Below, piece by piece: positions 3,700 to 64,000 of a stretch of 64,000 nucleotides of DNA. The DNA is taken from positions 1,054,001-1,118,000 of the forward strand of contig JBNRSN020000058.1 in the NCBI GenBank assembly GCA_051313645.2. The letters are read 5' to 3'. The position numbers were made by a program, and so were the translations under genes. The notes under the pieces were generated by a model. That model was given only the letters and a program-made list of their open reading frames with translations, had not been told where the DNA came from and ran no database searches. The stretch comes from Centroscyllium fabricii. Taxonomy: Eukaryota. Numbering within the stretch: the first letter of the stretch is position 1; the number at the start of each line of letters is the position of its first letter.

Positions 3700-4890
3700 C
3701 TTCTAATGGTTCAGCTGGTTAAAGCAGTTGAGTTGTACAATCAGGAGGGCCCCGGGCTCATTACCTGCTCTTTGCTGATTTAGCCCAGCTCAGCCAGGAT
3801 GGTGGCAGACAGTAAAATTGGTCTTAATGTACCTGGCGTAGGAAACAGAAATTCGGCCAACAATTCCCTCATGGTGGCTAACCAGGAACCTCTATTGAAA
3901 GTGCAAGTGTGGACATGGCACAAGGACACGGTCAGATTTGGCTAGTATACCGCCAATGGTCAAATAATAGGCCAACACTCATTGTTAAGTATCACACTTA
4001 AAGGGGGGGGAATTTCATGCCCCCGTGAGGCGGGCTTTTCGGCGGGTTGGCGATCAAAATAGCGGAACCAGCGGGTCGTGCCCCCCCCCCCCACCCCCGG
4101 ATTCCCGCCGATTTCCCATTTTCGGTCGGACTGTTTCCCCACCCCGAATCTTTCCCGCCAGCAGCCGGCGGAGATGGCTGATCAGATGATTAAGGGCCCT
4201 TAATTGGCATGTGTAATGCCATTTTAAGGGCCCTTGGGGATTTTCAGCCCCTGCCCACCCAAACCCCGCCATCCTAAACCCCGCTGGGTTTCACCCAGCG
4301 GGAGCACAATGATTTTAAAACTTACTCCTTCCAGGTGTTGAAGGCCCTGGAGCTAAATGCTTCTCAGGCCTTCATCACACTGCAGGAGTAAGTCACTCCC
4401 TTAGGGCAGCAGCAGCTGTGGGGAAAAACTTCAAAAACTGCCTTCTCCATCTCCAATGACAGACGCTGGCTATCTGTCAAAAATTTGAAGCCCGCCCGCC
4501 CACCTGTCACTCAGCAGCATATGCCTTGCCCCATTGGTCACACTTCACTGTGAGGTCACAGTGGAGTGTTTCCATGGGAACTGTAAATAGACAATTCCTG
4601 CATTTCCCTCGAGGTGCAGTTTCAGCACCGTAATTGGCCGCCGGACTGCTACAATTAGCTCAGGCACCCGCACACGGTGATTCAATTGACTAATTAGTTG
4701 AAAATAGTGTAGCCTTCCCAGGCCTTTGGGCGGGCGGGACAGGAACCCGCCCAGACCAATCCCCGCCAGGTTCCCGCACATCCGGCAAAATCCCCCCGAA
4801 AGAGTGGTCACTTGGTTGAGGCAGAAGGATAGTCACCTGGGCAAGATACCAGAGGACAATGGACACCATGCAGCTGCACCCAAGAGAGGA
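3700..4890 (+). mobile_element. Old tRNA-derived SINE interrupted by the MITE at 4003-4798
   Basis: Head tggttcagctggttaaagca...ccccgggctcatt. The body reads on across the MITE (cacacttaaa|gagtggtcacttgg). Confidence 0.45.
4003..4798 (+). mobile_element. Non-autonomous PIF/Harbinger-type MITE, family A copy 1
   Basis: Ends gggggggaatttc.../...aaaatcccccc; probable AAA TSD; internal palindrome ttaagggcccttaattggcat..atgccattttaagggccc; colinear with copies at 23808 and 24889. Confidence 0.8.
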
Positions 4891-15400: not shown

Positions 15401-17977
15401 ATTAGCATCTCCAGCCACCCATCAGGCCATTTGTTCATTTCATTATTTCGTAGTTTCATTCTGTTGTAATTATTAGTAATCTATTTCCACAGTTTAAAGA
15501 ACTGACTTTAGTAAAATATTCAATACTGTTGGCAGCATGTAAACTTGTTATATGCAACATGTACTGTGCTTTGACTGATACAGTATTGACTTTACAGTTT
15601 AACCATGCTGGTTTATTTTTCTTTTGCTGAGGCTCCTTGTGTGAGAGTATAGGTGCACAAACCATATACTATATTAAAAAAAACATACCATGTGTGATAG
15701 AATAAGATACACAATGAGAAGGTTCACAGGGATCAACTGTCACTGGAGTTGGAAAGATTGGTGGTTTGTTTTCTGATCTACTGCTGCTCCCAACACGACA
15801 TCCTCTTTGTATGTATTTAAATCAAGAGGGTTTACTTATAACGTGCAAGTCTGTTTTTTAAATCTAAAGTGTACATCCATAAGCCTTCTTTGTATCCAGT
15901 GTATGAATACTGACAATCTTGTACAAAGATAATCACAGCCATGATCTCCTGCACTATGAAGTCAGCCTGACTCAACCTCCACCAGACTGGAATCCAACAC
16001 CAGTCAATCCTTGATCCAGCCTCCTGCAGCCCATTTGTGATTCGTCAAAATGGGATCCTTTCGTGTGGGCATCAGGATATTGTATAATAATTTGATGAAA
16101 TGTTTCACCTGTACATTTTCTCCAAACATCACTGCCTAAAGTGTATTGATCTAATAGTTAAGCATGCCTTCAAGACATGACATCATAATATGAATGAGAT
16201 TGTGTCTGGAAAGCAAAATTAATTATAGGTCATGGGTACCTAATTAGATCTAATGGATTTACTGTACTTAACTGCCTCTTGGAATGATTTATGTATGCGT
16301 TATGAAAGCATTGATATTTTATAAAAGGCTATTATCAATAGTTCCACCATTTCTTTCCTTGTGAATTAAAAACAGAATAAACAAGCCATTTTGAGGGACC
16401 TATTTTCTTTATGTTTCTGTGCACAGATAGAACATGTTTATAGACAGCTGCAGGCATTATAAATTGTTCATTACTCCCCTCCACCCCAGTAGCACTTTGG
16501 CTTGGGGGGAGGAGGAGGAGAAGCTATGCCATACAATTTCTCCGGGTATTTTCTCCTTTTGAATGAAGATAAAAACAGGACAAACAACATAGTTACCTTC
16601 TTTTCAGCGCTTTGCAGACAGTCCCTTTGACACAGAAATAGGCAACTAAAAAGCAAAGTTCACGCATAAATGCCACTCATCTTGTAGAGCTCAGCCCACC
16701 CTTTACTCAAAACCTAACTTTCTGACTTTAGAAATTAAATAACGCCCCCCTGCCACTAAACATGTGCGATAAAGTTGTAATTTTACACAGAGCAATGAAT
16801 TGAGCACATTAAACTCTGTGGCCATATTTGTGTGAGAATTTTTCTTCAAAAAATCTGTGACATTTTGCTTTCAAATTACATATAAATAATCATGCAGCAT
16901 TGTTGCTTGCGAAATGTCTCAAATCTTTGCTTTCTCAGCCCCACCACTTACTTGTGTGCACCTATTCATTGGAGGCACAGCAGAAACTAGCTTCAACAGT
17001 TGAGGACTGACTATCTCAGAATAGCATACGTTAAACCGCCTAGTTCCCATCTAAAAAAATTGACAGAATTATTCTTCATTGCACTGCAGAAGAATAAAAT
17101 CAGTTTTCAAAAAAGTTTTTTTGGCAATGACATCAGGAGTATGCTGGCATGTTTCCAAAGATATATGCACAAATCAGGGAGAGTAGAGGTTGGACAGTAA
17201 TTGTGCTTTTTAATGTCAAAGTTATTCCAACTAAAACACAAACAGCAACTTCCTATGAAAAGAAACAACAGATTAAAGATAATTATGTCTTTCCTTCATT
17301 AAAAAACAAAACAAAAATTACAGGCAATAACCCAAGGCTATTATCAAAGTGGAGTGAATAATTAATGTTTACATTTTCTTTCCCCTCCGTTTGCATAAAC
17401 AACTTTCTTTTTTTTTAAATTAAAACATTAGTGTGAATCAATCTTGGTGCCACTTTAGGCATTAACATCCTGCAAATCTTGAACTTCAAGCAGCTCCAGT
17501 TATTTGTCCCTACCCTGGACCACCATGATTTAAATATTTTGGCAATTTTTTTGGTTTTGCATACTTCAAATAAATATAATTAAAACTGTCAAGCGTATAA
17601 GGATCCTAAATCCAGTTTGTGCAGAAAACTTACATTTTAACTTTTTAAGTCTAGTACCTGAGATTTGAGGAACTGAATTACCTTTTCCTGTTCATAAAAT
17701 TTCCTATTCTAGTAGAAGGATTTTATGGCAAACTTGTTACTTTAAGTCTTCTTTGTGTGGAGAAAGTGCAATGGATTTTTTTTATGTAGATGTGCAAAAC
17801 AATGCCAATAAAATCAAAAATTAACTTTAAAATAATCTCTATAAAAATGTCAGGAATCAATAGAGTACATGATGACCAGCAGCATTTGATAATCATTTCC
17901 ATTCATGTGGGGCCCGGTCACCTCAGTTGTGGGATATTTATCACCGCACACTCGAGGCCAAGTAGCATTTCTTATAT

Positions 17978-18310
17978 AGAATCACTGCACCGTTGGAGGT
18001 GCTGCCTTTCAAATGAAAAATTAAACTGATGCTTTGACTGTCTGTTCAGGTGGACATTAAAAATCCTGTGGCATTAATAAAATTAGAGCAATGAGTTTTC
18101 CAGTATCCTGGTCAATGCTCCTCGCTCAATCAGCACCACCTACTACAGATTAACTGATCATTCACCTCATTTACTGTTTGTGGGACCTTGCTGTGCACAA
18201 ATTGTCCGCCGTGTTTGCCTACATAACAACGGTGACTGTATTTCAAAAGTGATTAATTGGCTGGGAAACACTATGGAATGAGACATTACATGAATGAAAA
18301 CTTTCTTTCT
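17978..18310 (+). mobile_element. Deu-domain SINE (SacSINE1/AmnSINE1-like), 5' degenerate
   Basis: ctgcaccgttggaggtgctgcctttcaaatg...caggtggacattaaaaatcctgtggca...tgtttgtgggaccttgctgtgcacaaattg plus tail. Confidence 0.75.
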
Positions 18311-18871
18311 CTACTACCATCCATATACATGCATTTTTTCCAAAAATTTTACATGCAGTTAAAAGTCAGTGTGCGTGCCAAGCTACCGCAGTCTGACCTC
18401 ACTTCCTATCAGCATGTCATACAGAGTTACCTTATCTGACTATTCATCTCTAGCCATATGCTCCAGGCTGCACCCTCTAACTCCAGATTAGAGACAGAAA
18501 TATTGTTTTGTTTCCCACTCTGACCCCACTTCGCAAATCTCCACACATGACAATGGCAATGGCCTTCTCATGACATGTATTGATACCGACTCAGGATTTC
18601 TTACCAAATGATCTGCTAATTGTGCAGCAAGTGAGGCTGATCAGTCTCTCCACTGTTACTTGAGGGGCGATTGTAGCCCTACCCACCCGGGAGACTTATC
18701 CACTGACATCCTGCTCTGTTCCCATTGTCTTCAATTTTAACCTCATCTCTGAGCAGGTGGCAAGGACGCCTGCTTGAAGCCAGTGCATTCCTTCAATAGA
18801 TATGCAGGTCGGGGGTCTGATGACATCATTGGGCCCCGGTGGCTATTTTAATCAGTGGCCTGAGTGAGAAA

Positions 18872-21800
18872 CGGCAGCATAGTGGTTATGTTACTGGACT
18901 AGTAATCCAGAGGCCTGGAGTAATAATCCGATGAAGTCAGTTCAAATCCCACCACAGCAGCTGTGGAATTTAAATTTAGTTAATTAAATGAATCTGGAAT
19001 TAAAAAGCTCTTATCAGTAATGGTGATCATGAAACCATCTGATTCTGGTTCATTAATGTCCTTTAGGGAAGGAAATCTGCCATCCTTACCTGGTCTGGCC
19101 TATATGCGACTCCAGACCCACAGCAATGTGGTTGACTCTTAACTGCCCTCTGAAAAGGCCTAGCAAGCAACTCATTGTACACAACCACTACGAAAACCAA
19201 TAATAAGAATAAAACCAGACGGACCACCCAGTATCGAACCTCGTCACTGGCTTCAGATAAGACAACAGCACACCCAGCCCAGTCGACCCTGCAAAAGTCC
19301 TCCTTACTAACATCTGGGGATATGTGCCAAAATTGAAAGAGTTGTCCCACAGACTAGCCTGACATAGTCATACTCACAGAATCATACCTTTCAGCCAATG
19401 TCCCAAATTCCTCCATCACTATCCCTGAGTAAGTCCTGTCCCACCGGCAGGACAGACGCACCAGAGGTAGCAGCACAGTGGTATTCAGTCGGGAGGGAGT
19501 GGCCCTGGGGGTCCTCAACGTTGATTCCGGACCCCATGAAGTCTCATGGCTTCAGGTCTGCACAGTCCTAGTGGAGACAAAACCACGTCTTCAGGCTGAG
19601 GACACCCTCCATTTTGTTCTGTGGCACTACCACTGTGCTAAATGGGATAGATTCAGAACAGATCTAGCAGCTCAAAACTGGGCATCTGGTGTGGGCCATC
19701 AGCAGCAGCAGAATTGTATTCCACCACAATCTGTGACCTCATGGCCCGGCATATCCCTCATTCTACCATTACCATCAAGCTAGGGGACGAACCCTGGTTC
19801 AATGAGGAGTGCAGAAGAGCATGCCAGGAGCAGCACCAGGCATGCCTACAAATGAGGTGCCAACCTGGGGACTCTGCAACACAGGACTACATGCATGCTA
19901 ATCAGTGGAAGCAGCATGCTATAGACAGAGCTAAGCGATCCCACAATCAACGGATCAGATCAAAGCTCTGCAGTCCTGCCACATCCAGTCGTGAATGGTG
20001 GTGGACAATTAAACAACTAACGGGAGGAGGAGGCTCCATGAATATCCCCATCCTCAATGATGATGGAGCCCAGCTCGCGAGTGCAAAAGACAAGGCTGAA
20101 GCATTTACAACCATCTTCAGCCAGAAGTGCCAAGTGGATGATCCATATCGGCCTCCCCCGGAGGTCCCCATCATCACAGAAGCCAGTCTTCAGCCAATTC
20201 GATTCACTCCACATGATATCAAGAAACGGCTGAGCGCACTGGATACATCAAAGGCTATGGGCCCCGGCAACATCCCGGTTGTCGGGCTGAAGACTTGTGC
20301 TCCAGAACTAGCCGTGCCTCTAGTCTGGCTGTTCTAGTACAGCTACAACACTGGCATCTATCCGACAATGTGGAAAACTGCCCAGGTATGTCCTGTCCAC
20401 AAAAAGCAGGACAAATCCAATCCAGTCAATTACCGCCCCATCAGCCTACTCTCAATCATCAGCAAAGCGATGGAAGGTGTCGTCGACAGTGCTATCAAGT
20501 GGCATTTACTCACCAATAACCTGCTCACCAATGCTCAGTTTGGGTTCTGTCAGGACCACTCGGCTCCCGACCTCATTACAGTCTTGGTCCAAACATGGAC
20601 AAAGGAGCTGAATACTAGGTGTGGTGAGAATGACTGCCCTTGACCTCAGGGCAGCATTTGACCAAGTGTGGCAACAAGGAGTCCTACTAAGATTGAAGTC
20701 AATGGCAATCAGGGGAAAACTCTACATTGGCTAGAGTCATACCGAGCACAAAGGAAGATGGTTGTGGTTGTTGGAGATCAATCATCCCAGCTTCAGGATA
20801 TCGCTGCAGGAGTTCTTCAGGGCAGTGTCCTAGGCCCAACCATCTTCAACTGCTTCATCAATGACCTTCCCTCCATCATCATCATGTCAGAAATGGGGAT
20901 GTTCGCTGACGATTGCAGTATTCAGTTCCATTTGCAACTCCTTAGCTAATGAAGCAGTCCATGTCCGAATGCAGCAAGACCTGGATGACATTCAGGCTTG
21001 GGCTGGTAAGTGGCAAGTAACATTCTCGCCACGTAAGTGCCAGGCAATGACTATCTCCGAACAAGCGAGAGTCTAACCACCGTCCCTTGACATTCAATGG
21101 CATTACTATTGCTGAATCCCCCACCATCAACATCCTGGGGGTCACCATTGACCAGAAACTTGACTGAACCAGCCACATAAATACTGTGGCTACAAGAGCC
21201 GGTCAGAGGCTAGGTATTCTGTTCTGAGTGCCTCACCTCTTGACTACCCAAAGCTTTTCCACCACCTACAAGGGACAAGTATGGAGTGTGATGGAATACT
21301 CTCCACTTGCCTGGATGAGTGCAACTCCAACAACACTCAAGAAGCTCGACACCATCCAAGACAAAGCAGCACGCTTGATTGGCGTCCCATCTGTCACCTT
21401 CAACATTCACTCCCTGCACCACCGCCGCACCGTGTCTGTAGTGTGTACCATCTACAAGATGCACTGCAGCAACTCGCCAAGGCTCCTTCGACAGCACCTC
21501 CCAAACCTGCAACCTCAACCACCTAGAAGGACAAGGGCAGCAGGCGCATGGGAGAAACATCACCTTCAGGTTCCCCTCCAAGTTAAACCCCATCCTGACT
21601 TGGAAGTATATTGCCGTTCCTTCATCGTCACTGGGTCAAAATCCTGCAACTCACCCCCTAACAGCACTGTGGGAGTACCTTCACCACGCGGACTGCAGCA
21701 ATTCAAGGTGGCGGCTCACCACCACCTTCTCAAGGGCAATTAACGATGGGCAATAAATGCTGGCCTCGTCAGCGATGCCCACATCCCAGGAACGAATAAA
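18872..21800 (+). mobile_element. ORF1-less non-LTR retrotransposon (CR1/L2-group APE-RT) with tRNA-like 5' head; degenerate, with an internal deletion
   Basis: A-box-like gcatagtgg and B-box gttcaaatcc at the 5' end. APE N-terminus (TNIWG..PDIVILTESYL) near 19305. RT motifs NYRPISLLSIISK, QFGF, QGSVLGP, FADD. Tail gggcaataaatgctggcctcgtcagcgatgcccacatccc..aataaa. Possible AGAAA TSD. Confidence 0.9.
19290..21743 (+). pseudogene. Fragmented endonuclease/reverse transcriptase ORF of the tRNA-headed LINE
   Basis: ORFs 19478, 19714, 20368, 20668, 20861 and 21228 join into an APE-RT protein with stops and frameshifts; much of the endonuclease is deleted near 19560. Confidence 0.9.
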
Positions 21801-23807
21801 AGAAAGGCAGGAAACTGACAGAGGGCTTGCAGTTGAGATGTGGGAGTTAAAATCACCTGGGCGTAATGCTGCCGAGGCCAGGGGGTTTGGCACTCAGCCT
21901 CCACCCCCGATTCCAGCTCCAGGTTAAAATAGGGGCTTTGACGTTCCAATGGCATCCCAGCTGAAATTAAACAACATTCATCCGAACACCCAGCAGAAGA
22001 CTAAGTCAGTCATTAAGATTCTGATCTGGCATCAACCAGATGGTTAATAAGGGCTACATCTTCCTTACCATTTGGATTGTCCTAATTTTGGGGATTCTCA
22101 TCAATGGCCTTGCTACGTCAGGTCTGATTCACAATCTGTACAATTCCACACAGGTAAATTGTCTCTTAAAGTCTCCCATGATTATTTACTGTATTTTTTT
22201 CCCAAAAGACTTGTTACCCTGTTGGAAAGTTATTTTCTTTAATCTGTATGCTGTCCTGTGCCACATTACACCTTGACGACTAATAACATGTAACATGTGA
22301 CCTGGGTGTTGCTGTACATCCAGGTGCCTGCAGGTGTGGAACAGCGGCATATGCTGACTCACCTGTCAATCCTTCCTCTTTTTGAAGCAACGTCTTCACA
22401 CAATTGGCAATTCCTCAGATGGTTCAGTCTGGTGGGCTTGGGAAATCACAAGAGAAATTGGGGGTTGTGGGGGGTGGGCGTGATGTGCCTACCATAATGT
22501 ATTTCAATTTAATAAACCAATCCAGTATACCATACGGAGTAGTTTCTGGACCTAACAAAACTCTTCCACGCAACTTCAACAAAATTGCGACAATGCTTGA
22601 CCGTTGACCCAGATTCCGGCACTGATGACTGTTGTGTAACACCATACAAAATACAGCATTTACATCTTTGAGCACTTATATATACGATGAACAAAGTTTG
22701 TAGCAACTAATCCTTGACTTTTGTGAATGGCGGTTAACGGGGTCTTAATAACAAATCTTTTATTAATTAGATGAATATATGTTAACCGTGGCTTAATTTT
22801 ATTTGGGAAGACAAAAAGGGACCAATTTGAAGTTAATTACTGAAGTTTTTGGAGCATTTTGAAGAAAGATGCAACGGATTTAAATTCCTGGGCAAGTCTG
22901 TGTTGTATAGAGTATCACATATTATGCAAATGAAATGTTAATTTGGGGAACTCGGAATTAAATATGCTTGTGTAAACTGGTCTATTGGTAGTGAGCTGTG
23001 GGAATCTGGACAACTGTGTTTTTAAAAAAGGCAGCTGTACTAACTCCCACTGAAAGCATGGCAGAGATCGCTTTCATGTCTTTACAATTTGTGTTTATGA
23101 GGTGATAACATTTTTACAAATGCCATCATTTTTGCTTTTTTATATTGCAAGTGACAGACCGACATTTTACAACAGGCTTACAGAAAACAAGAATTGAGCG
23201 CTCTGTCTGTAACGGACATTAACTGTTGAATAGAGATTCATATGCAAATGAGGCAAGGGGCTGAAGAAACTTTCACTCAATGCTGCACATCAGGTCTGAC
23301 CAGCGATGACTGCAAAACCAAAGGAGGACAAGGAATAAAAAAAGCTGATATTGGGGTTAAGCCAGATTTAAGTAACTGGAAGCTTGCTGGATTCTCAATT
23401 AACCTGTTCTTTCCATCAAGGCTTTCTTCAAAAATTGTGTTATTTTCAACCAGTCTGCAGCAACCACTGAATCAATTGTTGAAAATCTGTCAACTTGCAA
23501 TGTCTTTCACCAAGATTAAAAATGAGCTATTTTCAATATTTGACATCTCAAGCATTTTAATTACTTCCTCAAACGTTGGTCTTTTCTGAGACCAACAGGG
23601 GACTTAGCTAAATGCCTGTGCACAGTAGTGCATCTCTGCCACTCCATAATGGAAATTGTCACAAGCCATCCAACTTCAGCCAGAAAACAAGCCAATTGCC
23701 TTATCACATTATAGTGCACTGGTGAGAAGGATTACCCAACATATGTATGGATACACAAACAGTAGGGTTTCTGCCCATACAGTTTTGCATTGTAACGGCC
23801 ATTTATT

Positions 23808-24565
23808 GGGGGGGATTTTCATGTCCCCGTGAGGCGGAGTTTTCGGCGGCTCGGCCGGCAAAATAGCACAACCAGTGGGTCACGATCCCCCCGCTGTATC
23901 CCTGCCACTTTTACATTTTCCCCCACCCTGATTCCCCGCACCGAAACCTTCCCGCTGCCGGCCGGCGGGGATGGGTTGTCACCTCGTTAAGGGCCCTTAA
24001 TTGACATGTTTAATGCCATTTTAAGGGCCCTCAGCCATTTTGAGCTGTTTCCTGCCCTAACCCCGTCACCTTAAACCCCGCTGGGTGAAACCCAGTGGGA
24101 GCACAGCGCTGGTTATAACTTTCTCCTTCAAGGTGTGAAGGACATGCTGCCAAATGCTTGGCATGCCTCCAGCACCTTAGAGGAGTAAGTTACTCCGTTC
24201 TGTCTGCAGCAGCTGTGAGCAAAAACGGAGACATCTCACCTCTGCACATTTGCTCAAGGATTCTGAGCCCGCCCGCCCACCTGTCAGTCACCAGCACTTG
24301 ACCTTTCCCATTGGTTCCACTCGACTGTGATGTCACAGTGGAGTGTTTCCATGGGAACTGTCAACAACCAGTGCTGGAACTGTCAATCAAACTCCTCGCG
24401 AGCCCGACTGGATTGAGTTAATTACCACCCGCTGCCGCCAGCGGGGATTTAACAACCCAATTAAATTTAAATTGTGTGGCCTTCCCAGCTGTTTGGGCGA
24501 GCGGGACAGCAAGCCGCCCCGACCAATCCCCGCCAGGTTCCCGCCCTTCCGGCCACGTCCCCCCC
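23808..24565 (+). mobile_element. Harbinger-type MITE family A copy 2
   Basis: Perfect ATT TSD (23805-23807 / 24566-24568); G-run and C-run termini; colinear with the 4003 copy. Confidence 0.85.
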
Positions 24566-24888
24566 ATTGAGTGGGCTGTCCATAAATTTCTAAAATAGAA
24601 AGTGGTCATCAAATCCTAAAAATCACATCCCATGGGTGTGGGAGGGCTAAATTGTGCTGGAGTTGTGGCAGGTGAGAGGACTTAAATTTGGGGGGAGGTG
24701 TGTGGAATCTAGATATGTCACGTTTCTACCCGTACACGTACAATAAATCCCAGAATGGTGGCAGGGCATATACTTTTGCTGCTCATCCCCCTACATCCCA
24801 GCAGCAGTTTGTGGGAGTGTTGGGGTTCTTCCAGGAATCCTGCTAGATACACCCAAGTGGTGCAGTGGAACCTACATCAGCAGACATA

Positions 24889-25611
24889 GGGGGGCATTTT
24901 CATGTCCCCGTGAAGCGGGGATTTGGGCGGCTGGGAGGTGAAAATAGAAAATGTTGGGGTCCCGCCCCAGCCCGCCAGATCCCCGCCGGTTTTGCATTTT
25001 TGGATGGCCACTTTCCCCGCCCCGAATCCTTCCCACCGGCGGCCGGCGGGGATGGTTGTTGAGGTTGTTAAGGGCCCTTACTTGGCATCTATAATGCCAT
25101 TTTAAGGGCCCTTAGCCATTTTTAGCCGTTTCCCACCCATTCTACGTCACCTTAAACCTGTCTCCTCAAGGTGTGAAGGAGATGGTGAAAAATGCTTGGC
25201 ATGCCTCCAGCACCTTAGAGGAGTAAGTTACTCTGTGGTGGGTGCACCAGCTGTGGGCAAAAACTGAGAAATCTCAGCTTTGCACATTTCCTCACAGCCA
25301 TGCCGAGCGGTCAAGGATTCACAGCCCGCCCGCCCACCTGTCAGTCACCAGCACTTGCCCTTTCCCATTGGTTCCACTTGACTGTGATGTCACTGTGGAG
25401 TGTTTCCATGGGAAGAGTCAACAACCAGTGCTGGAACTGTCAATCAAACTGTTCGAGCCCCGCTGCAGCCCCGACTCGATTGATTCAATTACCACCGGCG
25501 GGATTTAACAACTCAAATTGCGTGGGGTTCCCAGGTCTTTGGCCAGGCGGAACAGCAACCCGCCCCGACCAATCCCCACCAGGTTCCCGCACTTCCGGCA
25601 AAATCACCTCC
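24889..25611 (+). mobile_element. Harbinger-type MITE family A copy 3
   Basis: ATA/ACA TSD; colinear with copies 1 and 2 with a small internal deletion. Confidence 0.85.
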
Positions 25612-25889
25612 ACAGGTTCTATTTTGGACCTACTGAAGCTCCCCGGTGACAAATCCAAACGTAACTGATGACCGAGGATTCAATTATCACAATGGCCCTT
25701 CCTTCAATATCAAATAAATTAAAAATGTTATCCCACCTCAATCTCCAGACCCAACCGCTTCTGACTCCCCCTCTCACTACGGCAGGGTGCCACTCTAAGG
25801 TCACACTGCTTCCATCAGGCACCCCTGTTGTGTGGTACAGGTATTGGTACCTTACACTATTATTTAAATGACCACGTTCATATTATTTA

Positions 25890-26267
25890 AATGAACTGTT
25901 TTGAAGTGTATTCACTGTTGTTACATAGACACATGTGGCAGCCATTTTGTGCACAGCAAGATCCCACAAAAAGCAGTTAAGCTGTTTTTTGGTGCCATTT
26001 GTTAAGGGATGAATGTTGGCCAGGACATGGGGAGAAATGCCCTACTCTTCTTCAAATAGTGCTATGGGAACTTTTATGCTCATCTGAGCACATACAAGGC
26101 ATGTTTTGAAATCTCATCCAAGAAATAGTACTTCTGCCAATGCATTATTTCCTCAGTACTACACAGAAGTGTGGCCCAGATTATGTTCTCATAACCTAGA
26201 GTGGTGCTTGAACCCATGTCCTTCTGACTCAAGAGATAAAAGTGTTACCACTGAGCCAAGCTGGCAC
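25890..26267 (-). mobile_element. Full-length Deu-domain SINE (SacSINE1-like)
   Basis: Reversed tRNA head (cttgaaccc..., accactgagccaagctg), Deu core (gtgcacagcaagatcccaca) and tail. Confidence 0.8.
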
Positions 26268-33594: not shown

Positions 33595-34431
33595 CATAGA
33601 AGATAGGAGCAGGAGTAGGCCATTCGGCCCCTCAAGCCTGCTCCGCCATTCAATGCGATCATGGCTGATCATCCAAATTCAGTACCCAGTACCTGCCTTC
33701 TCCCCATAGCCCTTGATCCCTTTAGCCTTAAGAAATATATCCAACTCCTTCTTGAATATATTTAATGAATTGGCCTCAACTGTCTTCTGAGGTAGAGAAT
33801 TCCACAGGTTCACCACTCTCTGGTGAATAAATTCCTCCTCATCTCTGTCCTAAATGGCTTACCCCTTATCCTTAAGACTGTGACCCCTGGTTCTGGACAC
33901 CCTGGCCATCGGGAACATCCTTCCTGCATCTAGTCTGTCTAGTCCTGTTAGAATTTTGTAAGTTTCAATGAGGTCCCCTCTCATTCTTCTAAACTCCAGC
34001 GAGTATAAGCCCAATTGACCCAATCTCTCGTCATACGTCATTCCTGCCATCCCATGTATCAGTTTGGTGAATCTTCGCTGCACTCCATCCATGGCAAGAA
34101 CATCCTTCCTCAGATAAGGCGACCAAAACTGCACACAATACTCAAGCTATGGTCTCACCAAGGCCCTGTACAACTGCAGCAAGACATCCTTGTTCCTGTA
34201 CTCAAACCCCCTCACTACGAAGGCCAACATACCATTTGCCTTCTTCACCGCCTGCTGCACCTGCATGCTTGCCTTCAGCGACTGATGCACAAGGACACCC
34301 AGGTCTCGTTGCACTTCCCCTTCTCCCAATTTATTGCCGTTCAGATACTAATCTGCCTTCCTGTTTTTGCCACCAAAGTGGATACCCTCGCATTTATCCA
34401 CATTATACTGCATCTGCCCAATCACCCAACC
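33595..34431 (-). mobile_element. 5'-truncated CR1 LINE
   Basis: ORF2 C-terminus (QFWSPYLRKDV..VQRRFTKLI..RRMRGDLIETYKIL), CR1 3' hairpin and tail; tgtgaaa duplicated at the flanks. Confidence 0.93.
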
Positions 34432-40934: not shown

Positions 40935-41175
40935 TCTTCACTCAGTGGGTGGTGAATCTTTGGAATTCTCTATCCGAAAGTTCTGTGGGTGCTCAGTCAT
41001 TGAGTATATTCAAGGACAAGATAGATAGATTTTTGGACTCATGGAGAATCAAGGGATTTAGGGATCGGGCAGGAAAAAGTGGAGTTGAAGTCGAAGATCA
41101 GCCATGATCTTATTGAATGGCAGAGCAGGCTCGAGGACAGTCTGGCCTACTCCTGCTCCTAGTTCTTATGTTCTT
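40935..41175 (+). mobile_element. Short 5'-truncated CR1 3' end inserted antisense into the CR1 3' UTR
   Basis: LFTQWVVNLWNSL...tail ttcttatgttctta. The host reads on as aactccatttac|ctgcctttgcccc. Confidence 0.85.
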
Positions 41176-43189
41176 ACCTGCCTTTGCCCCATATCCCTTA
41201 ATACCCTTCGTTAACAAAAATCTATCAATCTCCGATTTAAAATTAACAATTGATCTAGCATCAATTGTCGTTTGCGGAAGAAAGTTCCAAACTTCTACCA
41301 CCCTTTGTGTATAGAAGTGTTTCCTAATTTCACTCCTGAAAGGTCTGGCTCTAATTTTTAGACTATGTCCCCTCGTCCTAGATTCCCCAACCAGCAGAAA
41401 TAGTTTCTCTCTATCTACCCTATTTGTTCCCCTTAATAGCTTGAATACTTCGATCAGATCACCCCCATGACCTTCAAAATTCCAGGGAATACAACCCTAA
41501 TTTGTACAATCTCTCCATGTAATTTAATTCCTGGACTCTCAGTATCATTCTGGTAAACCTACGCTGCACTCCCTGCAAGGCCAATATATTCTTCCTAAGG
41601 TGTGGTGCCCAGAACTGCTCACACTATTCCAGGTATGGTCTAACGATGGCTTTGTATAGCTGTACTGTAGCTTCTACCCGCTTGTATTCCAATCCTCTAG
41701 ATATAAAGGCCAGCATTCCATTAGCCTTTTTGATTATTTTCTATATCTGTTCATGACATTTTAATGATCTATGTATGTGGACCACCAAGTCTCTTTGGAC
41801 CTCCACTGTTTTTAGCTTTTCACCATTTAGAAAGTACCCTGTTCTATTCTTTTTAGCTCCCAAAATGGATGACCTCACATTTGCCTACATTGAAATCCAT
41901 TTGCCTCAGTTCTGACATTCACTTAATCTATCAACATCTTTTTAATTTTAAGCTTTCATCGACACTGCTTACAATGCCACCTATCTTTGTGTCATCTTTC
42001 TATGCCATCATCTAAGTCATTAATAAATATGATGAATAGTTGAGGCCCCAACACAGATCCTTGCGGGACACCGCTAGTCACATCCTGCCAATTTGAGTAC
42101 CTGCCCATTATCCCTACTCTCCGTCTCCTGCCCCTCAGCCAATTTCCTAACCAGGTCAATAATTTGCCTTCAATTCCATGGGTTTCAACCTTAGTTAACA
42201 GTCTTTTAGGGGGGACTTTATCAAATACCTTCTGAAAGTCCATATAACATCCATAGACATTCCCCGGTCTGCTGCTTTAGTCACCTCTTCAAAACATTAA
42301 ATCAGATTCATCAGGTAAGACCTACCTTTAACAAATCCATGCTGGCTCTCTCTGATCAGCTGAAAAGTTTCAAGGTGTTCAGTCAACCTATCTTTAATTA
42401 TAGACTCCAGTAATTTCCAGACAACAGATGTCAAGCTAACTGGTCTATATCCCTGGTTTCCCTCACTCACCATCCTTAAAAAGCAGAGTGGCATGTGTAA
42501 TTTTCCAATCTAACGGAATGATTCCTGAATCCAAAGAACTTTGGAAGATTATAGTTAGGGCATCTGCAATGTGCTCACCCACTTCTTTTAAAACCATCTG
42601 GTCCTGGGGATTTGTCACTCTTTAGCGGCATTATTCTCTTCATTACTGTTATTTTACATACGTTAATTTTGTTGAGTCCCTGTCCCAGGTTCGATACTAG
42701 CTTCCTTGGAATTTCGGGCATACTATCCTCTTCCTCTACTGTAAATACTGACACCAAGTAATTATTCAACATTTCCTTATTATCACTGACAAAATCACTG
42801 CTAACAGTTTAAGGGGCCAACATTGCTCCTGACTGCCCTCTTTTTCCTATTTAAAATTAACAATTGATCTAGCATCAATTGCCGTTTGCGGAAGAAAGTT
42901 CCAAACTTCTACCACCCCTTGTGTATAGAAATGTTTCCTAATTTCACTCCTAAAAGGTCTGGCTCAAATTTGTAGAGAAATGTATTAATGGCACTCATTC
43001 CAATAGCCCAGAATATTAATTGATATATTCCTAACTTTTACTCTGATCATAACTTTAATGTTTTAAAACTTCAGTTTGTACAATATAAGTATATTAAGGG
43101 CAAGAGGATAACTAGGGAAAGAGTAGGGCCCATTAGGGACCAATGTGGCAATCTGTGTGTAGAGCCAGAAGTAGTAGGTGGGGTTTTAA

Positions 43190-44813
43190 ATGAATTTTTT
43201 ACACTATGGAGAAGGACAACGTAGGCTTAGAAATCAGGCAGGGGACTGTGACATACTTGAATATATTACCATCGAGGGGGAGGAGGTACTAGCGGTTTTA
43301 GCAGGCTTAAAAGTGGATAAATCCCCAGGCCCGGATGAGATGTATCCCAGGCTGCTGTGTGAGGCAAAGGAGGAGATTGCAGGGTCTCTGACACTAATTT
43401 TCAGATCCTCTCTGGCCACAGGGGATGTGCCAGAGGACTGGAGAACAGCTAACGTGGTACTATTGTTCAAGAAGGGCAGTAGGGATAAACCAGGGAATTA
43501 CAGGCCAGTGAGCCTAACATCAGTGGTAGGGAAATTATTGGAAAAAAGTCTGAGAGATAGAGTTAGTATTCACCTGGAGGGGCAAGGATTAATCAAGGAT
43601 AGTCAGCATGGCTTTGTCAAGGGAAGATCACGTCTGATCAACTTGATTGAATTTTTCGAGGGGGTGACTAGGCGTGTGGATGAGGGTAGTGCAGTGGATG
43701 TGGTATACTTGGATTTCAGCAAGGCTTTTGATAAAGTCCCGCATAAGAGACTGGTCAAGAAGGTAAGAGCCCATGGGATCCAGGGCACCTTGGTTGGCAC
43801 AGTGGATCCAAAACTGGCTTAGTGGCAGAAAGCAGAGGGTGATGGTCAAAGGTTGTTTTTGTGACTGGAAGCCTGTGTCCAGCGGGGTACCGCAGGGATC
43901 GATGCTGGGTCCCTTGCTGTTTGTAGTCTATTTTAATGATTTGGATATGAATGTAAAGGGCATGATCAGTAAGTTCGCTGATGACACGAAAATTGGTGGG
44001 GTGGTGGATAGCGAGGAGGGAAGCCTCAGTCTGCAGGACGATATAGATGGGTTGGTCAGATGGGCGGAGCAGTGTCAAGTGGAATTTAGCCCTGAAAAGT
44101 GTGAGGTGATGCATTTTAGAAGGACTAACAAGGCAAGGGAATACACAATGAATGGTAAGACCCTAGGAAAGACAGAGGATCAGAGGGACCTTGGTGTGCA
44201 TGTACATAGATCTCTGAAGGCAGCAGGACAGGTAGCTAAGGTGGTTAAAAAGGCATATGGGATACTTGCCTTCATTAGCCGAGGCATAGAATACAAGAGC
44301 AGGGAGGTTATGATGGAGCTGTACAAAACGCTGGTAAGGCCACAGCTGGAGTACTGTGTGCAGTTCTGGTCGCCACACTATAGGAAGGATGTGATTGCCT
44401 TGGAGAGGGTGCAGAGGAGATTCACCAGGATGTTACCTGGGCTGGAGCGCTTCAGCTATGAAGAGAGACTGGGCAGGCTGGGGTTGTATTCCTTAGAGCA
44501 GAGAAGGCTGAGGGGGGACCTGATTGAGGTGTACAAAATTATGAGGGGCATAGATAGGGTAAATAAAAAGGAACTTTTTTCCTTGGTAGAGAGGTCAATA
44601 ACAAGGGGACATAGTTACAAGGTAAGGGGCGGGAGGTTTAGAGGGGATTTGAGGAAGAACATTTTCACCCAGAGGGTGGTTGGAATCCGGAACTCACTGC
44701 CTGAAAGGGTGGTGGAGGCAGGAACCCTCACAACATTCAAGAAGCATTTGGATGAGCACTTGAAGTGCCATAGCATACAAGGCTACGGACCAAATGCAGG
44801 AAAATGGGATTAG
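43190..44813 (+). pseudogene. CR1 ORF2 reverse transcriptase, nearly intact
   Basis: KSPGPD, NYRPVSLTS, QHGF, YLDFSKAFDKVPH, GVPQGS, FADD, QRRLRGDLIEVYK; one frameshift at the ttgg duplication near 43790; endonuclease absent. Confidence 0.93.
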
Positions 44814-44885
44814 AGTAGACAGGGCTCGATGGCTGGCATAGACGTGATGGGCCGAAGGGCCTCTTTCTGTGCTGTAAAACTCTAT

Positions 44886-50339: not shown

Positions 50340-51369
50340 ATGGTGGCATAGTGGTTATGTTACTGGACTAGAAGTCCAGAGGCCTGGACTAATGATCCTG
50401 AGGCTAAAAATCACAGCTGGAGAATTTAAATTCAGTTAATTAAATAAATCTGGAATAAAAAGCTAGTACAGGATGAACACCGTTATTCCGGTAACCGAAA
50501 AGCCGGCAACTTCAGTCGTCCGGCATAAATTGCCCCGACTGCCATGCGCATGCTCAAAATGGCCACCACGATCGATGCTTCGGTGAATGATCTGCACATG
50601 CGCTGCCGAACGGCGAGCGCATGCGCAGATCATTCAAAACGGCCTCCAGAGGCGGGACCGACCTTTGCCTCCTCATTAATGCGCCACCGAACGGTAAGGA
50701 TCTGCCGCTCACTCCGGCCTCACTCCCTCACCGCTGCCCGGGACCAGGCTCCGGCTACTAACTTGTTACTGCTGTGCTGAGCCTGCAGCCTGGGCCTCGA
50801 TTTATGGTTGTGTGCTGGGATGGGGGGGGGGGGGGGGGCGGGGGTGGAAAGAGTCCCATCCTGTCTGCCTGGTGAGCCGAGCCGAGGGATCTTTGCACGG
50901 CGGGTTCTGGGTGGCTGCAGCTACACTGCAGGTGATCAAAACTTCCGGCGGCCATTTCCAATGTTGTGCGCATGCGTGTGGCCATTTTGAATGGTGCGCG
51001 CACTGGCCGGCTTCATTCTTCCTGTTTTTTTGCTATACCGGCGCGGGCCTAGTCCCGCCCATGCCGGTATAATGGTGTTCAACCTGTATCAGTAACGGTG
51101 ACCATGAAACTACCAGATTGTCGTAAAGACCCATCTGGTTCACTAATGTCCTTTAGGGAAGGAAATCTGATGCCCTTACCCGGTCTGGCCTATATGTGAT
51201 TCCAGACCCACAACAATGTGGTTGACTCTTAACTGTCCTCTGAAATGGCCGAGCAAGCCACTCAGTTGTAAAAGGCGGCTCACCACCACCTTCTCAAGGG
51301 CAATTAGGGATGGGTAATAAATGCTGGCCTTGACAGCAACACCCACATCCCATGAATGAATTAAGAAAA
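50340..51369 (+). mobile_element. Short head+tail derivative (SINE-like) of the tRNA-headed LINE at 18872, interrupted by a MITE
   Basis: 50340-50468 and 51087-51270 match LINE ~18872-19180; 51271-51369 matches the LINE 3' end ~21708-21800. Confidence 0.88.
50469..51086. mobile_element. Tc1/mariner (pogo/Tigger-type) MITE
   Basis: TIR caggatgaacaccgttattccgg / ccggtataatggtgttcaacctg; TA TSD; the host SINE rejoins exactly (agctagta|tcagtaac). Confidence 0.88.
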
Positions 51370-51934
51370 GGTTGCATAATACTATACAATGTGACCGCAT
51401 CAGTATGCACACCAACATGAACATTGCTAATGGGTTGATTCCGCAGATGCAGACCTTCCTTTAGCAGACTTTGCCAACGGTGGTGATGTGGAAGGGCCAA
51501 CATCTGTCACAGAATATTGATGCAGACCATCTAGTTTGTATGCTGCAGCCCAGAGAAGGCCCTGTGGTGGATCCAGTAACAGGTGGAGTCTTCCCACCAC
51601 TCAATAAGCACAGTATGAACTGTGTTCCCTTGGGTGGCACATCTTTTGTGGTAGCAGCTGGTTCTTCCTGACAAAAGGACTTGATGTCCCACTGTTACTG
51701 GTTACTGTCCTCTTCAAATGGTTATAGCCTTAGGGTTTACTGCAGAAAAGCTGGAAGATGATGATTCCTCTGTCGAGGCATGAAGAACAAAGTTCCACTA
51801 ATGGCTTTGCAGTAAAAATGCACCCACAATGCAGGACTGCTGCAGAGGCCAGTGAGGCACAGAACAAATTATACAATTAAAATGCAGCGGAGCAATATAG
51901 GCATAGGACTTTACTTACATGAATAAATGTGTTT

Positions 51935-54376
51935 ACAACAACAACTTGCATTTATATAGTGCCTTGAACGTGGTAAAACATCCAAAGGTCCTTCACAGGA
52001 GCGTTAAAGTTTGACACCTAGCCACATAAGATGATATTTGGGCAGATGAGAGGTAGGTATTAAGAAGAATAGAGAGGTCGAGAGTCTGAGAGGTTTAGGG
52101 AGGGAATTCCAGAGCTTAGGGTCTCGGCAGCTGAATGAATGCCCACCAATGGTGGAGCAATTAAAAACGAGGATGCACAAGAGGCCAGAATTGGAGAAGC
52201 GCAGGTATCTCTGAGGGTTGTAGGGCTGGAGGAGGTTACAAAGATAGGGAGGGGTGAGGCCCTGAGGGGGTTTTAAAACAAGGATGAGAATTTTAAAATT
52301 GAGGCATAGCTTAATCGGGAGCCAGTGTAGGTCTATGAGCACAGGTGTGATGGGTGAATGGGACTTGGTGCAAGTTAGGATACAGGCAGCAGTTTTAGAT
52401 GAGGTAAGTTTATGGAAGGTGGAAGATGGAAGGCCAGCCAGGATTGCATTGGAATGGTCAAGTCTAGAGGTAACAAAGGCATGGATGAGGGTTTCAGCAG
52501 CAGATGAGCTGAGGCAGGGGCGGAGTCGAGCGATGTTAGAGGTGGAAGTAGGCAGTCTTAGTAATGACACAGATATGTCGTCAGTAGCTCATCTCAGGGT
52601 CAAATACGATACTAAGGTGGCAAACAGTCTGGTTCAGCCTCAGATCATTGCCAGGGAGAGGGAAGGAGTCGGTGGCTGGGGAACAGAGTTTGTGGCGGGG
52701 ACCAAAGACAATGGCCAAAATTTTCCCAGAAGTGCGGGGAATTGTCGGGTTTCAGGCGGATCAGGTTTCTGACCTGAATGTTAAAGTGCCTGGGAGCCCC
52801 ACGCTTAAGTGGCTTAAGTGGCCAATTAATTCCCCACATGTGGGAAGCCTTCCAAATCGACTATTTCCAGTCAGAAAGTCGCACAATATCACATCATCAT
52901 TGCTGGTGCATTTCAGGTCCACAGCATGTCTTGCTTCTGCTGCGGACTGCTAACCTTGTGCCCTTTTATGCCAGAGGGACCTGGAGGCGGAATGACCATT
53001 GAGAGACCTAGGTCTGCTTCCAGGTTTGATGATCTGGCCCTGCAAGCTTCATTTGAGGGAGCTAGAGCTCAAAGATGTGCTCTTCCCTTTTTCAGGGAGG
53101 AAGAAGTCTCCCCAGCAGGCTGTGTGTATCCAGGTGGCAGAGGAGGGCAACTCATTATCAATACCCCGCAGAACCTGCATTCAGTGCAGGAAGAGATTTC
53201 ATGACCTTCTGCACACTGGAAAAGTGAGGATGGAACTCCTATCACCCTCAATCTGAGCCCCAATGCCTTTCCTCACCAGCACTCAGCTTCAGCAATCTCT
53301 TCCTCCACATCCCACTTGACACTCACATCCATGCACCCTTACCTATTCCCTCTCTCTCTATGCTCACATTCACATAACTATTCCACCATGCAGCCCTCAC
53401 ACTCCCTATCACGCTGATGCTTTGAACACAACTGACAACACATATGGAGCGCCCTTGGTCTTGCCACCTCACTCCATCTTTGTCTCCTTCTAAGTATCCA
53501 GACAGGGACAGCAGTGGAGGGTCCTAGTCGGAGGGCGCAGGACTCTGCCAGCTCGGCTCAGCTGCATGTCGACCCTCTGCCTCTGGGTTCATCCATTTGA
53601 TTGGCAGTGCTGGAACTCCAGGAACAGATGCAGGAGGGGGTGGGTGAGCAGCAGCCTGGCGCTCCTGCTGCTGCTGTTGTTGTTCCTGGTACTGCTGGTG
53701 CTGCGGCTGGTGTGGGAGCTCATCTAATGTCCAGAAAGGTATAGCCTAAATGGCTTCCATGCTTTTGGCATATCCTCCGCTGAGGAAGTGCTGAGTGAAG
53801 GTGCCGAGAGGGGTTTCCCAGGAGTTCACACTGGAGATGTGTGTGAGGCTCCAACCTACCACAAGTGTGATTAGGACTTCGAAATGTTGCCCAAGCCAGA
53901 AAAAATAAGGTCCTGCCACCTGTATATGATGGCAGGTTCAATGTCAGACCAGATGGAGCTGCTGCTGAGAGTCAGCAAGCCGATTGTGTTTCCGCCAGGT
54001 TTCAGCGGCGAGGTTTGCAGTTGGCGGCATTTGTGTGGGGAACGTCTGAAAATTGCTAAGGGCCCTTAAAATGGCATTACAGATGCCAATTAAGGGCCCT
54101 TAATGAGCCTAACGACCATCCCCGCCAGTGGGAAAGATTCAGGGCGGGGAGACAGGGCGGCGGGAAATGGCAAAGCGGAGGGGATCCGGCGGGAGGGGTG
54201 GGGTCGGGACCCCCCGGTTTAGCAATTTTGCGGTCCGACCCGCCAAAAACCCCACCTCACGGCACCATGAAAATTTACCCCAATGGCTTCGGTCTTCCCA
54301 ATATTTCGTTGGAGAATATTTCTGCTCATCCAGTACTGGATGCTGGACAAGCAGTCTGACAATTTAGAGACAGTGG
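51935..54376 (-). mobile_element. L2 LINE 3' portion, split by a Harbinger derivative
   Basis: ORF 52004-52570 NIARLRPCLS..AETLIHAFVTSRLD..HSPITPVL..LHWLPI; tail acaacaacttgcatttatatag; rejoins at gacaat|ggcttcggtc. Confidence 0.9.
52713..54281. mobile_element. Internally deleted PIF/Harbinger element with Myb remnant (+, ~53000-53223) and probable transposase N-terminal remnant (-, ~53500-53760)
   Basis: AAT TSD; ends ggccaaaattttc / gaaaatttacccc; RPRSASRFDDLAL../DVLFPFSGRKK..QVAEEGNS..RRTCIQCRKRFHDL..GK|gtgag. Confidence 0.82.
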
Positions 54377-63436: not shown

Positions 63437-64000
63437 GATCTGCCCTGTCGGGCGGCGATCTGCCCTGTCGGGCGGCGATCTGCCCTGTCGGGCGGCGATC
63501 TGCCCTGTCTGGCTGCGATCTGCCCTGTCTGGCTGCGATCTGCCCTGTCTGGCTGCGATCTGCCCTGTCTGGCTGCGATCTGCCCTGTCTGGCTGCGATC
63601 TGCCCTGTCTGGCTGCGATCTGCCCTGTCTGGCGGCGATCTGCCCTGTCTGACGGCGATCTGCCCTGTCTGACGGCGATCTGCCCTGTCGGACGGCGATC
63701 TGCCCTGTCGGACGGCGATCTGCCCTGTCGGACGGCGATCTGCCCTGTCGGACGGCGATCTGCCCTGTCTGGCTGCGATCTGCCCTGTCTGGCTGCGATC
63801 TGCCCTGTCTGGCTGCGATCTGCCCTGTCGGGCTGCGATCTGCCCTGTCGGGCTGCGATCTGCCCTGTCTGGCGGCGATCTGCCCTGTCGGACGGCGATC
63901 TGCCCTGTCTGGCGGCGATCTGCCCTGTCGGACGGCGATCTGCCCTGTCGGACGGCGATCTGCCCTGTCGGACGGCGATCTGCCCTGTCTGACGGCGATC
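63437..64000. repeat. 20-bp GC-rich minisatellite, ~28 units, truncated by the window end
   Basis: Unit gatctgccctgtc(g/t)g(g/a)c(g/t)gc. Confidence 0.97.

Follow-up and report, generated by a model that had tools for sequence, protein, structure and literature searches.

LINEs are classically coding elements transcribed by Pol II, and SINEs are non-coding elements transcribed by Pol III. In the window analyzed here (a stretch of 64,000 nt from a Centroscyllium fabricii contig), an element on the + strand at about 18867-21805 had been described from its letters as a LINE without ORF1 that begins with a tRNA-like, SINE-style head and may be transcribed by Pol III. A short SINE elsewhere in the window is made of the two ends of this element, so the long element is either a one-off junction or belongs to a family from whose two ends the SINE is built. 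Which of the two applies, and which polymerase would make the RNA of such a family, is the question that this locus raises.

Structure of the long element and of its short SINE form

The SINE-style head of the preliminary description was located at 18867-18965 (+), where the element starts as the seven published consensuses discussed below do. It contains an A-box-like motif at 18875-18885 and a B box, GTTCAAATCC, at 18940-18949, both assigned by consensus motifs; the spacing between the boxes is long, about 55 nt. Since ARAGORN found no tRNA gene in the whole 64-kb window, and Rfam gave nothing relevant at the element and no ribozyme match, the head is tRNA-like by its motifs and is not a tRNA gene. 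Its predicted cloverleaf-like fold reached only z = −1.4, and folding predictions for head, leader and tail gave weak z-scores (−1.9 to +0.1). The rest of the leader (18966-19179, +) is common to the short SINE form, with blastn matches to 50346-50464 and 51087-51270 at about 80% identity. It is followed by a LINE-specific linker (19180-19290, +), delimited by contig loose ends behind 19174 and by comparison with family proteins and consensuses.

The N-terminal part of the APE endonuclease lies at 19291-19555 (+) with one frameshift and one stop, and a relative, P0051, matches PF03372. The endonuclease motif VLLTNIWG starts at ~19297, about 430 nt past the element start, and no + strand ORF of at least 80 aa was found between head and endonuclease, in agreement with the earlier statement that there is no room for an ORF1. 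The end of the endonuclease, the reverse transcriptase and the C-terminal region occupy 19565-21743 (+), 3' of a deletion of roughly 350 nt near 19556-19565 in the endonuclease. This part, interrupted by stops and frameshifts, was matched by tblastn with P0001/P0002 (37-43% identity), and the RVT_1 profile gave a hit (E 1.4e-5); the closest named protein matches of the element are shark gene models (69-79% identity), which marks the window as shark DNA. The 3' tail common to the SINE (21710-21805, +) contains a hairpin, two AATAAA motifs (21752 and 21795) and a short A-rich end. No target-site duplication was found at the element. The features first described are thus present, but the ends lie at about 18867 and 21805, and the copy is dead, broken by four stops, several frameshifts and the deletion. 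Together with the deleted part it amounts to about 3.28 kb.

The sole other match to the element in the 64-kb window is the non-coding SINE at 50346-51371 (+), in which head and leader are joined directly to the tail: positions 18877-19179 of the element (the first ~310 bases) are fused to 21710-21807 (the last ~100). Both tails are 87% identical over 98 nt, and the SINE copy likewise ends A-rich. This copy carries inside it a MITE-like insert of 618 nt (50469-51086, +) that has terminal inverted repeats and a TA duplication and encloses a palindrome and a G-run. Contigs of all four sequencing runs compared showed a leader-to-tail joint of the same type, 19174 to 21710. An internal deletion of the LINE would be a direct route to the SINE, a path that this structure offers.

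Composite elements of related build are known. In bipartite tRNA SINEs (Kojima 2018, PMC5786205) a tRNA head is likewise combined with a middle and tail shared with a LINE; there the head sits on a non-coding derivative of a LINE (RTE, Vingi) that has undergone deletion, whereas here it sits on a full-length coding LINE. LINEs with tRNA-like sequence, RTE-1_DAn and relatives, are mentioned in the same paper and are a possible precedent, in the RTE clade. The butterfly SIDE Persaeus (Wang et al. 2019, PMC6740152) is also a short element made of the 5' and 3' ends of a Zenon, but it is explicitly described as having neither tRNA homology nor a Pol III promoter. Among tRNA-headed shark SINEs, SacSINE1 and the DeuSINEs (Luchetti et al. 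2017, PMC5499810; Ohshima 2013, PMC3747384) are of similar size. The tail of SacSINE1 is L2-type (L2-2_CM / CR1-4_DR-like), whereas the SINE at 50346 has a Zenon tail, and by these descriptions the latter is probably another family.

Further repeats were observed in the window. Canonical CR1 copies, all 5'-truncated, lie at 43095-44885 (+), 41175-42660 (−) and 33690-34420 (−); another interspersed repeat has four copies, two of them in tandem (4004-4807, 23805-24574, 24882-25612 and 53985-54288), and a tandem array of 60-nt-scale period at 63437-64000 continues past the window end. A SINE-like repeat unrelated to the head of the element has two copies, at 17950-18300 (+) and 25750-26050 (−), and presumably resembles the Deu-type SacSINE1. 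The leader of the element was considered as the Deu domain of SacSINE1, and this was dropped because the tails differ and the repeat at 17950-18300 appears to fit better.

Head and coding region in the Zenon family

Zenon LINEs have been described as CR1-group elements, universally without ORF1 and with a poly-A tail (Stuart et al. 2026, PMC13343379), and the consensuses in the supplement of that paper were compared over their first 400 nt. All seven elasmobranch Zenon consensuses, from five species (CarCar, RhiTyp, ScyCan, HypSab and SquAca: white shark, whale shark, catshark, Atlantic stingray and, with three consensuses, spiny dogfish), start with the same head and leader, while none of the three from hagfish (two) and coelacanth (one) does over that length. 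By eye the match of the window element is near-continuous over the 400 nt and closest to SquAca_Zenon-1, and two exact 14-mers of the window occur in six and seven of the seven elasmobranch Zenon rows and in no other row of these 5' ends. A search for six exact B-box 10-mers in 1,003 vertebrate CR1-group consensuses, over the first 400 nt of each, returned six matches, all in elasmobranch Zenon; the B box is kept in six of the seven consensuses, the stingray one being without an exact copy. Six consensuses measure 3096-3314 nt and one 2886 nt. In their single ORF without ORF1, A tail and 3.2-3.3 kb they correspond to the window element, and the published data consulted give no structural difference beyond decay. 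This match identifies the element as a decayed copy of an elasmobranch Zenon LINE of the CR1 group.

The element has a single APE and reverse transcriptase ORF without ORF1 and, as a poly-A tail, the short A-rich end at 21795-21805, as in Zenon, and it does not have the upstream ORF1 of canonical CR1 or of L2 with an esterase ORF1. With respect to SINE2 elements, a tRNA-derived head with A and B boxes is present in the long element by motif, but at 2.9 kb here, and 3.2-3.3 kb in most consensuses, with an APE-RT ORF, it is not a non-coding unit of 100-700 bp. In a quick tree of 56 rows, built with no named Zenon reference, the element fell in a 28-row clade of invertebrate-type relatives (SH-aLRT 99), and the canonical CR1 of the window fell outside it. 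Rfam gave no ribozyme or other match on 12 clade relatives. The exact DNA pattern of the endonuclease start had 0 matches in genome_contigs and viral_contigs, and a protein search of viral_contigs yielded 0 confirmed relatives.

The linkage of head and ORF was also followed in contigs of four runs (X1, X5, X13 and X17) from four organisms, mapped onto the element. The whole element was covered in all four, at summed depths that exceeded those of the flanks by orders of magnitude. Run X17 may be RNA, but since contigs reveal neither strand nor transcript start it was given no weight as a sign of expression. A common 5' boundary is marked by heterogeneous loose ends before 18876, seen in at least 419 (X5) and at least 1252 (X13) contigs, and loose ends behind 21805 were seen in at least 448 and at least 729 contigs. 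A third set lies behind 19174, in at least 367 (X1), at least 497 (X13) and at least 31 (X17) contigs; the sequence past these ends resembles the LINE-side linker and not the SINE tail. No contig spanning 19174-19300 was among the 32 pieces listed out of about 539,000.

Family proteins provide separate evidence. A leader-derived peptide stands ahead of the endonuclease in 3 of 36 (P0048, P0054 and P0056; p ≤ 0.007 relative to random segments of the window) and a linker peptide in 6 of 36, and the remaining proteins either begin within the endonuclease or are fusions with unrelated sequence. P0088 was rejected as a further carrier of the leader peptide, since its match looks like chance (p = 0.013). 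The proteins with leader or linker are whale shark gene models by source, P0118 aside, and the leader-endonuclease link stands independently in whale shark gene models. The family-wide link on which the preliminary description depended is thus borne out by seven of seven consensuses, the whale shark models and a 5' boundary common to hundreds of contigs. In five species the normal form of the family is a unit of 3.2-3.3 kb in which the head is followed by a leader of ~310 nt, a single APE-RT ORF and an A-rich tail.

No match to head, leader or tail was found in 135 non-shark related loci, many of which are contigs without the 5' end of the element; the head looks like an elasmobranch acquisition, as judged from these sequences. 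In the non-shark loci, default ARAGORN found no tRNA (60 loci), and a relaxed scan returned scattered chance calls only. Two side observations concern this set. Loci L081-L135 include many bacterial MAG records with animal-type LINE ORFs, some on contigs of several hundred kb, which are probably host contamination. A repeated hairpin-like motif without Rfam match was seen at the 5' side of non-shark elements (twice at L002:390-480, once at L001:170-220), and letters similar to it occur in a hagfish Zenon consensus.

The published genome shares of Zenon are 6.8% in white and whale shark, 4.4% in dogfish, 3.2% in catshark, 0.7% in stingray and 0.02% in elephant shark, figures that probably include SINE copies. 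Intact ORFs are nearly absent from the published counts (0/2313, 1/1419, 3/612, 0/59, 1/294 and 0/396, in a table with one garbled cell), and the family is therefore largely fossil.

T-runs and the start of translation

A scarcity of T-runs in the sense strand, as terminators of Pol III, had been suggested from two TTTT runs in the element against about eleven in the CR1 at 43095-44885. The counts are exact: the 2929 nt of the element contain two T4+ runs (19612 and 21255) and no T5, and the 1791-nt CR1 contains 11. The comparison itself did not stand, since the CR1 is enriched in T4+ runs (11 vs. 3.9 expected) and two TTTT runs are not below chance, with means of 5.1 in base shuffles (P = 0.10), 2.7 in dinucleotide shuffles (P = 0.49) and 3.5 in synonymous-codon shuffles (P = 0.25). 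TTT+ runs, a statistic chosen only after the TTTT count proved non-significant, were depleted relative to base shuffles (11 vs. 24, P = 0.002), borderline relative to dinucleotide shuffles (11 vs. 16.3, P = 0.053), and depleted in the coding segments relative to synonymous-codon shuffles (8 vs. 14.7, P = 0.004). The codon-shuffled control that had been proposed, applied to the window copy, thus gave a normal TTTT count and a depleted TTT count. Since A-runs occur at normal frequency, the TTT depletion is strand-specific. TTT is not a Pol III terminator. The NTT:NTC codon bias of the element was not significant (P = 0.13).

Among 120 related regions, the element ranked lowest in TTT ratio (0.40, the next being 0.56) and in TT ratio (0.79), and second-lowest in T4 density. 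This panel consists of 118 of the 135 loci, those with a match of at least 1.2 kb (17 dropped), plus two window elements, and it is made up mostly of T-rich invertebrate elements, near-duplicates included. A related, intact non-shark element, L082:67-2781, has one TTTT in 2.7 kb and is poorer in T4 than the window element, so counts of this order can arise from composition alone; its 5' end is off the contig, and a Pol III-type head there is possible.

Comparison of the window copy with its family gave a further indication. The TTTT at 19612 is copy-specific, with G at 19614 in 80-99% of contig depth in all four runs, and T-to-C was the commonest class of difference from the window copy in each of them, which indicates that T is scarcer in the family than in this copy. 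The difference rows considered were 40 of 325, and the TTTT at 21255 lies outside those 40. By eye, no TTTT was present in the first 400 nt of the seven elasmobranch consensuses.

The leader contains eight upstream ATGs (18870-19208), and the earlier remark that no ATG precedes the endonuclease in its frame is true of the window copy. Here ATA at 19209-19211 stands at the position of the family's ATG (MKPD...), which is conserved in the published consensuses about 30 nt past the SINE-shared leader and at which several whale shark gene models begin. Read by eye, the stingray consensus places this ATG one base off the endonuclease frame, as do most whale shark models to go by their translations, and SPVDP is in frame with the endonuclease in the window copy and in P0048. 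The A-run at 19291-19297 has four A in the window copy and three in the stingray consensus and apparently in most whale shark models. Its length determines the frame of the conserved ATG relative to the endonuclease, which makes a frameshift or a non-AUG start possible; on the reading of these frames, the family as a whole may lack an in-frame ATG and would then need one or the other.

Transcription of the family

That the head acts as an internal Pol III promoter and yields a functional full-length Zenon RNA is, on sequence grounds, a proposal with even chances. The fuller form of this reading is more tentative and falls somewhat short of that: an autonomous coding Pol III retrotransposon with an uncapped RNA of 3.3 kb, translated with neither cap nor conventional start, which would be a true SINE-LINE hybrid, would have come to occupy as much as 7% of shark genomes and would give rise to its SINE by simple internal deletion. 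An ancestral Zenon would have acquired the head from a tRNA SINE, through template switch or recombination, before the split of sharks and rays. Transcription by Pol III would begin at the head, extend over 3.3 kb because T-runs had been selected against, and end at a T-run further downstream. Translation of this uncapped RNA, with its eight upstream ATGs and uncertain start codon, would proceed without normal cap scanning, and the Zenon protein would recognize the 3' hairpin and copy LINE and SINE alike by target-primed reverse transcription. The lack of ORF1, being common to all Zenon elements, says nothing about the polymerase.

Parts of this scheme have parallels. Uncapped LINE RNA can be translated: R2 and L1Tc (PMC6765202) are ORF1-less as well, and their uncapped RNA is translated via a structured leader, but their RNA is made as part of host transcripts and cut free by an HDV-like ribozyme, and they have no Pol III promoter. 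Cassandra, Helenus and Ajax (Kojima 2024, PMC10886601) are non-SINE retroelements with Pol III promoters from small RNAs; unlike the coding Zenon, they are short, non-coding LTR elements of 311-1263 bp. The same paper attributes the 100-700 bp of SINEs to weak processivity of Pol III, and Zenon, at 3.3 kb, is far longer. The long spacing of the A and B boxes and the stingray consensus without an exact B box also argue against the Pol III reading.

It is possible, though doubtful, that a SINE-type 5' end was captured long ago and the RNA is nevertheless made by Pol II, from a promoter in the leader or by host read-through. The A and B boxes would then be structural or passengers, and the TTT depletion would result from RNA stability or from avoidance of splicing or silencing. 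The standard view that LINEs are transcribed by Pol II, the length of 3.3 kb and the absence of significant TTTT depletion agree with this, as do the two AATAAA signals and the A tail, which fit Pol II processing and count against Pol III. However, copies begin exactly at the head, the B box has been kept in most consensuses, the upstream ATGs would impede cap scanning, and the TTT ratio is the lowest of the panel.

A division of labor between the polymerases appears unlikely. In that case a Pol III RNA would be copied as a giant SINE, and the protein would come from Pol II read-through of copies in host genes, which accounts for the exact starts at the head and the T-run depletion without uncapped translation; with up to 6.8% of a shark genome published as Zenon, such read-through would be plentiful. 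Retrotransposon RNA tends to be copied by its own protein (cis preference). An intact ORF of 950 codons over long descent is easiest to explain if this holds here as well, which speaks against such a division. A chance local junction of a SINE with a 5'-truncated LINE at this one locus, which the missing target-site duplication and the lack of a listed contig across 19174-19300 would allow, is extremely improbable and was ruled out by the head and leader shared by all seven consensuses, an architecture found in five species and in the whale shark models.

The Zenon family and its lack of ORF1 are already published, and the SINE made of Zenon ends may already be named elsewhere. The tRNA head of Zenon and its match to the SINE were not found in the literature searched, composed mostly of papers other than subscription articles and Repbase Reports. 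In the main text of PMC13343379 the words tRNA, polymerase and promoter do not occur and SINE appears in a reference only, and the head is also unmentioned in the consulted parts of the whale shark preprint (10.1101/443036) and the dogfish paper (PMC10468316). In practice, repeat libraries will mis-split Zenon into SINE and LINE pieces.

As a vertebrate LINE that is very abundant and opens with a tRNA promoter head, Zenon cuts across the division between LINEs and SINEs in its structure. If the Pol III reading is true, Zenon would be a natural case of a multi-kilobase, protein-coding Pol III transcript, and would bear on the processivity of Pol III and on cap-independent translation.
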